A DNA stretch of 6,695 nucleotides from a virus (taxonomy: Duplodnaviria > Heunggongvirae > Uroviricota > Caudoviricetes): the IMG/VR virus record IMGVR_UViG_648276656_000011; one strand, written 5' to 3'. Positions 849 through 6,640 of the stretch are shown in pieces. Each line of letters opens with the position of its first letter. The stretch's first letter is position 1. Below the pieces are notes generated by a model. That model was given only the letters and a program-made list of their open reading frames with translations, ran no database searches and was not told the DNA's origin. Made by a program: the position numbers and the translations under genes.

Positions 849-1064
849 ATGTCAAATAAAATGACTGGTTTAGTAAAATGGTTTAACGCTGATAAAGGTT
901 TTGGCTTTATTTCTCCTGTTGATGGTAGTAAAGATGTGTTTGTGCATTTTTCTGCGATTCAGAATGATAATTTTCGAACCTTGTTTGAAGGTCAAAAGGT
1001 TACCTTCTCTGTAGAGAGTGGTGCTAAAGGTCCTGCAGCAGCAAATGTCATAATTACTGATTAA
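849..1064 (+). CDS. cspB: Cold-shock protein CspB (71 aa)
   Basis: [38 protein letters not shown]... is a classic CspA-family sequence with the RNP1 motif KGFGFI and RNP2 VFVHF. SD AAGGAA lies 8 nt upstream of the ATG. Confidence 0.9.
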
Positions 1065-1345: not shown

Positions 1346-1370
1346 AAACCCGCTCAGGCGGGTTTTTTAT
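1346..1370 (+). terminator. Rho-independent terminator (possibly bidirectional)
   Basis: AACCCGC (1347-1353), loop TCAG, GCGGGTT (1358-1364), then T6. It is ~280 nt after the cspB stop and ~60 nt beyond the convergent minus-strand zinc-ribbon ORF. Confidence 0.7.
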
Positions 1371-1427: not shown

Positions 1428-1598
1428 TCAAGCTACAGCTTTAAGATTTGTCTGGAATACTTTGTTGCAATGAGGGCAGATCAAAAGGGCACCTTTTTGT
1501 ACTCTTGAAAAACTGTGTTCTGACTCTTGGGTGCAGTTTGGGCAGGAACATTTAACGAGATAATTACGGCGTGATTTTGAGTCTTTACGTTCTGACAT
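1428..1598 (-). CDS. Small zinc-ribbon protein (56 aa, CxCPxC...CPHC), hypothetical
   Basis: The minus-strand ORF track gives 73 aa, but the internal ATG (plus-strand 1596-1598) has SD AGGAAAAG 6 nt upstream, whereas the first Met has none. Translation MSERKDSKSRRNYLVKCSCPNCTQESEHSFSRVQKGALLICPHCNKVFQTNLKAVA carries four Cys in a zinc-ribbon arrangement. Confidence 0.55.
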   Translation of the reverse strand: MSERKDSKSRRNYLVKCSCPNCTQESEHSFSRVQKGALLICPHCNKVFQTNLKAVA

Positions 1599-1607
1599 AG
1601 GCTTTTC

Positions 1608-1629
1608 CTGTATAAATGGCCGTATACAG
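1608..1629. promoter_or_regulatory. Perfect palindrome CTGTATA-N8-TATACAG abutting the RBS of the zinc-ribbon gene
   Basis: Direct reading: ctgtata (1608-1614), aatggccg, tatacag (1623-1629). Either an operator for a dimeric DNA-binding protein or an mRNA hairpin next to the SD. Confidence 0.5.
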
Positions 1630-1816
1630 TACACTAAATATGAAAACATATCTCGTATTATTATTTAATATATGATTTTCTTTTAAAATAATTACCCACA
1701 TTTTTAATGTGTCTGTTTTTTAGCGCCGTTGAGAACAACGTTTGCTATAAAAACTAACCCATAGACTCCGATCTTTTCAAACATATTGCACCATCTGTGT
1801 ACATCGGGGTGAGGAT

Positions 1817-2032
1817 ATGAAATCAATGGATAAGTTAACAACAGGTATCGCCTATGGCACATCGGCTGGTAATGCTGGTTTCTGGGCATTGCAGTTACTC
1901 GATAAAGTAACTCCGTCACAGTGGGCTGCAATCGGTGTGCTGGGTAGTCTGGTTTTTGGCCTGCTGACGTATCTGACAAACCTTTATTTCAAGATTAAAG
2001 AAGACAGGCGTAAGGTTGCGAGAAGAGAGTAA
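1817..2032 (+). CDS. essQ: Class II holin / pinholin, phage-21 S-type, with dual-start motif (71 aa)
   Basis: [71 protein letters not shown] closely resembles the S21 pinholin from memory. The Met1-Lys-Ser-Met4 start fits the antiholin/holin dual-start arrangement. Strong SD GGGGTGAGGA upstream. Positioned as in Qin (cspB - essQ - ydfR - rrrQ). Confidence 0.85.
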
Positions 2033-2036
2033 TCCA

Positions 2037-2588
2037 ATGACACAAGACTATGAACTGGTTGTGAAAGGAGTCCGCAATTTTGAGAATAAAGTGGCGGTAA
2101 CTGTAGCCTTACGGGACAAAAAACGCTTTGACGGTGAAATTTTTGACCTGGACATCTCGCTGGACCGTGTTGAAGGTGCCGCGCTGGAGTTTTATGAGGC
2201 AGCAGCCAGAATGAGAATCAGACAGGTATTCCTGGATGTTGCTGCCGGGTTATGTGTAGGGGATGAGCAGTCGCTGGAAAAGCGCCCCATAATTTTAGAG
2301 GCGCAGAATGTGTGGATAACCTACAAAGGAAAGCTACCGGGAAGAATTACTGGTTCTCTGAAGACGCCACCGACGGCATTGCGGTCAGAAAAAGATGATA
2401 TTGAATCGCCCATTGAAAAACTGGAGGGCAGCGTCGCTGATCTGAATAAAAAATTGTCGGTGCTGATCCCTTCTGAAGATGAAAAAAAACGCCGCGATGA
2501 GCAGTTTGCGGCGTTTTACGATTATTGCATTGAAGTTACTCGCAGGAATTTTGTGAAGATTTTTGAGGAGGGTAAATCTCTTCAGTAA
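2037..2588 (+). CDS. ydfR: YdfR-family lysis-cassette protein with a long C-terminal extension (183 aa from ATG 2037)
   Basis: The tracked ORF starts at TTG 2016 inside the holin gene; the ATG at 2037 lies 4 nt after the holin stop and gives MTQDYELVVKGVRNFENKV..., which I recognise as the N-terminus of Qin YdfR (recalled as DUF1327, ~100 aa in K-12). Here the frame stays open to 183 aa. Its antisense frame is Phe-rich junk, supporting plus-strand coding. Confidence 0.65.
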   Translation: MTQDYELVVKGVRNFENKVAVTVALRDKKRFDGEIFDLDISLDRVEGAALEFYEAAARMRIRQVFLDVAAGLCVGDEQSLEKRPIILEAQNVWITYKGKLPGRITGSLKTPPTALRSEKDDIESPIEKLEGSVADLNKKLSVLIPSEDEKKRRDEQFAAFYDYCIEVTRRNFVKIFEEGKSLQ

Positions 2589-3937: not shown

Positions 3938-4094
3938 ATTAATATTAAATCGGATTATTTTTAGCGCTGAATGTGAAATTTAAATAAAAAGGACTCTTCC
4001 ATGAGTCAAAATCCTTGAAATCTTAAGGGTAAGATAAAAGGTCATTAGACAGAATGACACGTTTTATTAATAAATAAAGCTATTGTTTCATTCG

Positions 4095-4170
4095 TGTGTT
4101 TTTCTTTACAAAAGTAATCCTTGCTATGGTTGGTTAATCATGCGTTAATGGTGTTCTGGTTTGTTACAAA
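4095..4170 (+). promoter_or_regulatory. cspI promoter and cold-box-like 5'UTR start
   Basis: AT-rich 4095-4120, TTGCTA 4121-4126, 17-nt spacer, GTTAATG 4144-4150, then CTGGTTTGTTACAAA. Parallels the cspB upstream region (shared ATGCGTTAATG...GGTTTG). Confidence 0.5.
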
Positions 4171-4300
4171 ATTATCTGAAGCAGTCATTGTTATAATTTT
4201 ATTATTTGTACCTCTTGAGATTTCCTTGTTGGTTTTTCTCTCTGATATTTTTTTTCGGACCATTCTGCCCAAGGGCTAACTTCTTCAAAAGGTAATAATG

Positions 4301-4513
4301 ATGTTTAACAAAATGACTGGTTTAGTGAAATGGTTTAACCCTGAAAAAGGTTTTGGTTTCATCACGCCGAAAGATGGTAGCAAAGATGTGTTTGTGCATT
4401 TCTCAGCTATTCAGAGCAACGATTTCAAAACGTTAACTGAGAATCAGGAAGTCGAATTTGGTATTGAGAACGGACCTAAAGGCCCTGCAGCTGTTCATGT
4501 AGTGGCACTTTGA
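4301..4513 (+). CDS. cspI: Cold-shock protein CspI (70 aa from the second ATG)
   Basis: [70 protein letters not shown] matches CspI from memory. Tandem ATGs at 4298 and 4301; AAGG lies 6 or 9 nt upstream. Confidence 0.9.
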
Positions 4514-4717
4514 GGTAGAAAATATTACAAACCATATTCACTTTAGATGCCCGTGTTGCCATGGTTCTCAGTATAGAACATCATCTTTTGATGTTTCTGA
4601 CAGAAATCCTTTCGGGGCAAAATGTATCTTTTGTAAATCAATGATGATTACATTTGATAATATTTCACAATACTTAAATGTTAGCCATCTGTCGTTAGAT
4701 TTAAGAAAGTGAAAATG

Positions 4718-6415: not shown

Positions 6416-6640
6416 ATGGATCATGAGTTGAAAAACCTGGTGCTGAATATTAATCAACTGGCGGCTTTATCTGGTCTGCACCGCCAGACTGTCGTGGCAA
6501 GACTGAAAAACATTCGTCCCGCTGGTGGACATGACAAACTCAAGCTATACCGGTTGACCGATATTCTGACTGAATTTATGGGGTTACCACCGCCGGTTGC
6601 TGAGGGCGAAATGGATCCACATGAACGCAAAGCCTGGTAA
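6416..6640 (+). CDS. Terminase small subunit-like HTH DNA-packaging protein (NohQ/Nu1 position), 74 aa, possibly truncated
   Basis: SD GGAGGA 4 nt before the ATG. LVLNINQLAALSGLHRQTVVARLKN looks like an N-terminal helix-turn-helix. Location immediately after the cos-like region. A TAA at 6638-6640 is followed by a frame that stays open to the window end. Confidence 0.55.
   Translation: MDHELKNLVLNINQLAALSGLHRQTVVARLKNIRPAGGHDKLKLYRLTDILTEFMGLPPPVAEGEMDPHERKAW

Follow-up and report, generated by a model that had tools for sequence, protein, structure and literature searches.

A reverse-strand gene in the late region of a Qin-type prophage is ynfU, and the palindrome beside its Shine-Dalgarno sequence is most likely a lineage-specific coincidence

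The small open reading frame (ORF) on the reverse strand between cspB and the holin gene in the DNA analysed here, a stretch of 6,695 nucleotides from the Caudoviricetes record IMGVR_UViG_648276656_000011 (hereafter the window), is ynfU, a gene that is already catalogued and is not new. Our analysis supports ynfU as a genuine and conserved gene for a zinc-ribbon-type protein, read against the late operon. We also consider it probable, on the whole of the evidence, that ynfU is a known passenger gene with its own promoter and that the perfect palindrome in front of it is a lineage-specific coincidence. The coordinates of the features discussed below are given in Table 1.

Table 1. Features of the ynfU locus, in positions of the window.
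Feature	Position	Strand	Basis and remarks
cspB terminator, GC-rich hairpin	1346..1365		Plus-strand terminator scan; inverted repeat I3
ynfU coding sequence (56 aa and stop)	1428..1598	-	ORF translation; annotation in CFT073 and K-12; HMMs; dN/dS
Shine-Dalgarno AGGA	1606..1609	-	7 nt 5' of the ATG; read from the sequence and the alignment
Perfect palindrome CTGTATA-N8-TATACAG	1608..1629		Escherichia/Shigella lineage only
Predicted transcription start	1619..1621	-	From geometry, 7 to 9 nt after the -10-like hexamer
Putative -10 element TACTGT	1626..1631	-	Alignment A3, columns 43-48; shares 4 nt with the left palindrome arm
Putative element at the -35 position, GAGATA	1649..1654	-	Gap-free block of A3; weak match to TTGACA
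A/T-rich tract, possible UP element	1655..1672	-	A3 columns 9-18, A-rich in most members

The ORF runs from an ATG at 1598 to a stop codon at 1428 on the minus strand and its 56-residue translation is MSERKDSKSRRNYLVKCSCPNCTQESEHSFSRVQKGALLICPHCNKVFQTNLKAVA. It lies antiparallel to the late genes, between cspB (849-1064, plus strand) and the class II holin gene essQ (1817-2032, plus strand), and the original prediction had placed it correctly. A longer start (ATG 1649, 73 aa) appears in the mechanical ORF list; the annotated and conserved start is the one at 1598. On the gene strand, the upstream region is laid out as GAGATA-N17-TACTGTATACGGCCATTTATACAGGAAAAGCCT-ATG. The region 1300-1800 is 100% identical to E. 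coli CFT073, S88, APEC O1, and many more strains, and is found in 1653 of the 5426 complete E. coli genomes. Each of the E. coli matches listed carries the annotation "ynfU: putative zinc-binding protein YnfU". The gene order in CFT073 is ydfT(Q), cspF, cspB, ynfU, essQ, a YdfR-like gene, rrrQ, rzpQ, cspI, ynfQ, ynfN, gnsB, and nohA. The same order is found in the cryptic prophage Qin of K-12 MG1655, whose DNA is 97% identical to the window across the region, with the palindrome unaltered. There, ynfU is b4776 (1640805-1640975), and the belief that K-12 Qin has no annotated gene at this place is thus out of date, since ynfU sits exactly there. The K-12 gene has the same neighbours, cspB and essQ, and is likewise opposite to them in strand, and its product is 96-100% identical to that of the window, with both CPxC knuckles and the SEHSFSRVQKG core. 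The allele in the window is of the CFT073 type; it has D at position K6, where the representative of the K-12-type cluster has N, and there is otherwise no substantive difference.

The protein has been detected in the cell. Weaver et al. 2019 (bioRxiv 10.1101/511675) found ynfU by Ribo-RET, the ribosome profiling of stalled initiation complexes, and confirmed YnfU in K-12 by immunoblot after chromosomal SPA tagging. Among the newly identified small proteins of K-12 in that study, YnfU had the highest level. The authors described "a pair of zinc knuckles" in the protein, which they found to resemble the zinc domain of PA0128 weakly. PIRT-seq detected ynfU independently. In our own comparison of about 80 species-level ynfU loci, the median dN/dS relative to the E. 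coli allele was around 0.09, and the entropy at codon positions 1, 2, and 3 was 29, 15, and 59. The low dN/dS and the difference in entropy between third and second positions show that the gene is under strong purifying selection.

YnfU matches two dedicated families well above their cut-offs, Pfam PF23499 "YnfU" (107.7 bits, cut-off 27, E=2.5e-31) and NCBIfam NF038384 (79.8 bits, cut-off 36, E=7.9e-23). Together with the CPxC knuckles, these matches bear out the prediction of a zinc-ribbon-type gene. The two knuckles that it described are present (C19/C22 and C41/C44), but the count of four cysteines was too low: there are five, at positions 17, 19, 22, 41, and 44, with C17 no less invariant than those of the knuckles. 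In an alignment of 24 family members, K5, L14, C17, P20, C22, S26 to F30 (SEHSF), K35, P42, and C44 are invariant, C19 and C41 are nearly so, and the C-terminus is not conserved. The protein is small (6.4 kDa) and basic (predicted pI 9.4). The CPxC motif suggests that it binds zinc, which is a putative property.

Searches with the 56-aa protein, as the original prediction had proposed, retrieved the YnfU family and showed that the ORF is conserved, also outside prophages. A word-indexed search gave 49 clusters, and those that are named all belong to Enterobacteriaceae. When 1.84 billion representative proteins were searched exhaustively with a profile, 44 matches at E<=0.001 were obtained; the more distant relatives among them are stand-alone proteins of 53-63 aa with the pattern CPxC-x3-SEHS...LICPxC. 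The convincing full-length matches of this search were all short stand-alone proteins, and none linked YnfU to a characterised family. Similarly, no family of known function scored above its Pfam threshold, no PADLOC family was matched, and the PHROG search gave nothing informative.

Below these thresholds, several zinc-binding domains resemble YnfU. Profile matches to the PDB included Tim15 (E=0.009), L44e (0.046), an archaeal ribosome-bound zinc finger (0.1), and PA0128 (0.37). The best match among solved structures is thus the DNL zinc finger (Tim15/Zim17/Hep1, PDB 2e2z), which shares with YnfU the pattern C-x2-C-x3-S-x-H-x2-S...KG-x2-LI-x-CPHC; yet zf-DNL (PF05180) gives only 13.4 bits, below its cut-off of 27, and YnfU lacks the DNL motif. 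The N-terminal zinc ribbon of PhnA/YjdM (PF08274; PA0128, PDB 2akl) has a CPxC...CPxC arrangement of similar span, but scores 22.4 bits against a cut-off of 30.8 (E=1.3e-4), and YnfU is devoid of the C-terminal domain of PhnA. The AlphaFold2 model of YnfU has a pLDDT of 64, and its top Foldseek matches in the PDB are small archaeal ribosome-associated zinc fingers, with non-significant E-values of 0.1-0.3 (best 0.11). We rejected a function derived from the fold, given this pLDDT and this best E-value. The top fold and profile matches, all non-significant, are to HVO_2753-like archaeal ribosome-bound zinc fingers (PDB 9fhl_C, 9o17_AZ) and to eL42/L44e; L44e has in common with YnfU the pattern CPxC-x3-(S/T)EHS. 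With E-values of 0.05 to 0.3 and a pLDDT of 64, this likeness is that of a generic zinc-ribbon fold and is no sign that YnfU contacts the ribosome. No recognisable DNA-binding fold besides the zinc ribbon was found with Pfam, PDB profiles, or Foldseek. From fold, charge, and context alone we infer, as a best guess, that the zinc ribbon and the basic N-terminus most plausibly bind nucleic acid or RNA, the ribosome, or a larger protein, in an adaptor-like manner.

The genomic context of ynfU across enterobacteria suggests that its home is not the prophage. In 57 of 80 enterobacterial species (loci L003-L082, with ynfU at about 4001-4168 in each), ynfU has a csp gene at a distance of at most 800 bp: 39 have a convergent cspB-like gene downstream, 10 a tandem cspF-like gene downstream, and 8 have a csp gene upstream only. 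Typically, ynfU faces a cspB-like gene in convergent orientation, and a cspF-like gene comes next. As 47 of these 57 csp-linked loci have no lysis genes within 4 kb, the ynfU-cspB-cspF block (336-1598 in the window) has the appearance of a chromosomal module that was acquired by Qin-type phages and now lies between Q and the holin gene. In Enterobacter and Klebsiella, ynfU stands alone in a chromosomal, non-phage setting surrounded by metabolic genes, and the more distant relatives have stress-type neighbours such as DinI, Usp, and YdhR.

Lambdoid prophages carry passenger genes known as morons, which lie within the late operon and have a promoter and a terminator of their own. As an independently transcribed gene in the late region of a Qin-type lambdoid prophage, ynfU would be one of them. 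It is like a moron in its opposite orientation, its AT-rich flanks (33-36% GC vs 41% for the window), its promoter-like block, the terminator hairpin nearby, and its expression in the lysogen. Unlike what the concept of a moron implies, the ynfU/cspB/cspF block is also ordinary chromosomal DNA in many genera. The cspB terminator hairpin lies 63 nt past the ynfU stop codon and may also end the convergent ynfU transcript.

Other features of the window and of the prophage were observed along the way. The first 55 nucleotides of the window contain a run of about 21 A, then the GC-rich hairpin CCCCCGCGGAGGGGGGG, then TTTTT; in CFT073 coordinates this lies just past the Q gene and probably serves as the late-operon terminator targeted by Q. 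The Rfam cspA thermoregulator matches at full length at 688-1127 and 4143-4559 on the plus strand (160 and 105 bits), and these matches span cspB and cspI, each with its leader and coding region. The ORF that follows the holin gene (2037-2588, plus strand) begins with a DUF1327/YdfR domain (E=1.2e-40) and continues with around 70 unrelated residues; RefSeq lists it in CFT073 as an incomplete YdfR pseudogene and annotates in its place an overlapping antisense hypothetical protein of 86 aa at 2536-2802 on the minus strand. A 74-aa ORF at 6416-6640 (plus strand), directly upstream of the gene for the terminase small subunit, has an N-terminal match to DUF1441 (E=5e-15) as well as a helix-turn-helix, and lacks an annotation in the CFT073 record. 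Finally, the CFT073 prophage has, around 3 kb upstream of the start of the window (L001:1329-1655), a gene for a 108-aa protein that is made up solely of a LexA DNA-binding domain (PF01726) and has no peptidase domain. This gene is found in 59 phage records, including Stx2, SfII, SfIV, and cdtI phages.

To compare the sequences in front of the gene, we took the ynfU loci of 80 species and aligned the 46 distinct upstream regions (alignment A3). The alignment is nearly free of gaps from about -65 to the ATG, and there is no similarity beyond. In order, the conserved block comprises an A-rich tract, rAGCwA(T), a spacer of 17 bp, G-T-A-n-n-G-T, CC about 7 nt later, and CAGGA, which is almost invariant at the Shine-Dalgarno position (columns 65-70). 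The T, A, G, and T of TAnnGT are found in all 46 regions; the motif reads TATGGT in most species and TACTGT in E. coli. The family consensus at the -35 position is rAGCwA, with the G in 45 of 46, and the spacer between it and the -10-like hexamer is variable in sequence and 17 bp long in every case. GTATGGT is even present at an equal distance from the ATG in distant homologues whose proteins are only about 45% identical (L288, 3950-3965; L290, 2480-2495). In Yokenella regensburgei (L076, 3756-4003), ynfU lies 36 bp behind a cspF-like gene, with which it is apparently co-transcribed, and there the block is lost and the Shine-Dalgarno sequence is kept. This loss fits a promoter that co-transcription has made unnecessary.

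The invariant T/A/T, the fixed spacer of 17 bp, and the A-tract upstream are what one would expect of a sigma-70-type promoter whose -35 element is weak, and we infer that the conserved block is the promoter of ynfU. The gene would then be transcribed from its own signals, namely the A-rich tract, GAGATA as -35, the 17-bp spacer, and TACTGT as -10. A start near 1619-1621 would give a leader of around 21-23 nt, with translation from AGGA-N7-ATG. The left arm of the palindrome would consist of the last four bases of the -10 element and of the discriminator and remain untranscribed, and the right arm would be part of the transcribed leader.

A few observations fit this assignment less well. A simple promoter scan gave no prediction at the conserved block, the -35 matches TTGACA poorly, and a plain sigma-70 -10 element would not usually have an invariant G at -8 (the fifth base of the hexamer). 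Given this odd G and the poor -35, GTGTAnGGT could instead be the site of a regulator or of an alternative sigma factor. The supplementary tables of Cappable-seq, eLife 3'-end/dRNA-seq, ROSE in vitro, and EDL933 start-site studies have no usable 5' end for ynfU, and an RNA-seq compendium has only fragmentary, unquantified assemblies upstream of it. In a comparison by eye, none of the consensus sites for sigma-32, sigma-E, sigma-28, sigma-54, Zur, TyrR, HipB, RelB, CsrA, or PhoB fits. By genomic SELEX, Shimada et al. 2017 (PMC5493296) observed peaks of the sigma-E and sigma-32 holoenzymes in the essQ-cspB spacer of K-12 (U00096.2 1638930 and 1639072, about 1250-1500 in the window), which were credited to essQ/cspB before ynfU was annotated. 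We did not retain these peaks as the promoter of ynfU, because their resolution is too coarse and the DNA too AT-rich.

The palindrome was described correctly in the original prediction, and its contact with the Shine-Dalgarno sequence consists of a two-base overlap: the AG that begins AGGA is also the end of the palindrome, so that the right arm ends within this sequence. It is not beyond chance in such an AT-rich spacer. In the 451 bp between cspB and essQ, the number of perfect inverted repeats of 7+7 with a loop of at most 20 is 2, vs 1.2 expected (P=0.34), and shuffling of the 60 nt upstream of ynfU produced a 7+7 repeat in 6.3% of the trials. The whole window has 29 perfect 7+7 repeats (loops 0-20, nested ones counted) vs 11.8 +/- 4.4 in dinucleotide shuffles, and this excess is mainly accounted for by long GC hairpins elsewhere. 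There is no second copy in the 6.7-kb window with up to 2 mismatches, and the search for further copies also came back empty in 12.5 kb of the CFT073 prophage with up to 3 mismatches. When viral contigs were scanned, 46 of the 120 matches listed were the ynfU locus itself; the others listed have unrelated spacers and are mostly singletons, with a few recurring up to 6 times.

Comparison between species also separates the palindrome from the gene, as it is absent at every non-Escherichia ynfU locus compared. Even within viral-contig copies of the locus, 2 of 10 upstream variants, corresponding to 3 of 80 copies (L112, L141), have changes in an arm and keep TAnnGT. The left-arm variants within Escherichia are C-to-A, or C-to-A plus A-to-G, and are also seen in L006. 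These variants are weak evidence against a constraint on the palindrome, divergence within Escherichia being low. In two Enterobacter species (L055 and L074, around 3960-3995), a direct repeat, TGTACTG...TGTACTG, takes the place of the E. coli palindrome, with one copy over the -10-like hexamer and the other abutting the Shine-Dalgarno sequence. Klebsiella and Kosakonia have a dyad ATGG-N7-CCAT near +1, which we considered and discarded as a conserved helix because its partner columns show no apparent covariation by eye in A3. Altogether, the palindrome is most likely a lineage-specific coincidence between the -10 element and discriminator and the leader next to the Shine-Dalgarno sequence, and a role as a conserved operator or as an RNA switch is improbable.

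The alternative that survives best, although we regard it as unlikely, is that the palindrome is an operator over the -10 element and the +1 at which a dimeric repressor shuts off ynfU. Such a repressor could be YnfU itself, the host LexA, the phage protein with the LexA DNA-binding domain, or another regulator of the prophage. The perfect 7+7 dyad is placed where a bound repressor would occlude RNA polymerase, its absence in other genera is compatible with a regulator specific to Escherichia, and divergence within Escherichia is too low for a proper test of selection on the dyad. However, neither the repeated sites of a prophage-regulon operator nor conservation together with the regulated gene is observed, since the site is single in the prophage, missing from the other genera with ynfU, and broken in natural variants. 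Apart from its zinc ribbon, YnfU has no DNA-binding fold that can be recognised, and tight repression in K-12 is at odds with the good expression of the protein there under standard growth. The palindrome had originally been taken as a sign of autoregulation or repressor control, an interpretation that its chance-level occurrence, its restriction to Escherichia, the lack of covariation, the variants that break it, and its single copy do not sustain.

One candidate reader is a LexA-like protein. Each arm of the palindrome (CTGTATA) is a good half-site of the LexA (SOS) operator CTGT-N8-ACAG, TACTGTATAC agrees with the consensus half-site TACTGTATAT at 9 of 10 positions, and the LexA-domain protein of the CFT073 prophage matches PF01726 with E=3e-19. 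But the half-sites are 6 bp too far apart, with 16 bp between CTG and CAG instead of the 10 bp of a LexA box, and the 20-bp consensus TACTGTATATATATACAGTA has no match in the window within 3 mismatches. A canonical LexA box is therefore ruled out by its spacing. Furthermore, the gene of the LexA-domain protein is found in 59 phage records and ynfU in 8, which points to independent modules, and K-12 Qin retains the palindrome while no LexA-domain gene is annotated in the 10 kb inspected. What is left is a recently evolved, Escherichia-specific operator made of two LexA-type half-sites with a wider gap and read by a protein with the LexA fold, for instance the LexA homologue of many lambdoid phages that is reduced to the DNA-binding domain; we regard this as very improbable. 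If true, ynfU would be controlled by the phage or by the SOS response, and a new spacing class of LexA-like repressors would be defined.

It is similarly improbable that the palindrome acts in RNA, as a 7-bp hairpin in the ynfU leader that hides part of the Shine-Dalgarno sequence or stabilises the mRNA. The right arm does terminate within AGGA, and a weaker promoter-like site further upstream, TTTAAA-16-AATAAT (1687-1660), would bring both arms into the transcript. With the conserved -10 element, on the other hand, the left arm is not transcribed. For the longer E. coli leader, the folding energy has a z-score of about -1.1 relative to shuffles, and the minimum-energy structure does not contain the palindrome helix. 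Across the 46 species, the seven pairs of the proposed helix form in 44.1% of the cells vs 44.6% in column shuffles, and in 33-54% once the partner is slid by 1-3 columns. RNAalifold finds 0 conserved pairs in the same alignment, and Rfam has no match at the palindrome or the leader. Hence, neither the compensatory changes nor the folding energy relative to shuffles that mark a structured cis-regulatory RNA are seen here.

Finally, a toxin, antitoxin, or anti-sigma role, which the original prediction had suggested, is unlikely, and we give hardly any credence to ynfU as a tightly repressed zinc-ribbon toxin, antitoxin-type regulator, or anti-sigma-like factor: the protein is small, sits in a prophage with a dyad close to its start, and such modules do occur in these prophages (gnsB, and hokD and relBE in K-12 Qin), but there is no adjacent partner ORF and no match to known models of toxin-antitoxin or anti-phage defence genes (0 PADLOC families), the sequence has no HxxxCxxC motif of anti-sigma factors, tagged YnfU is abundant in healthy K-12 (Weaver et al. 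2019), and elsewhere the gene is alone on the chromosome among metabolic genes and under strong purifying selection in about 80 species.

The preferred reading thus remains that of a known passenger gene with its own promoter beside a coincidental palindrome. The annotation of ynfU dates from 2019, Pfam and NCBIfam each have a family for it, and its protein has been detected, so that the finding as originally stated adds very little. The leads to the function of YnfU are rather the promoter-like block with its unusual invariant TAnnGT, the strong linkage to genes of the cspB/cspF type in Enterobacteriaceae, and the view of the prophage copy as a captured chromosomal module.
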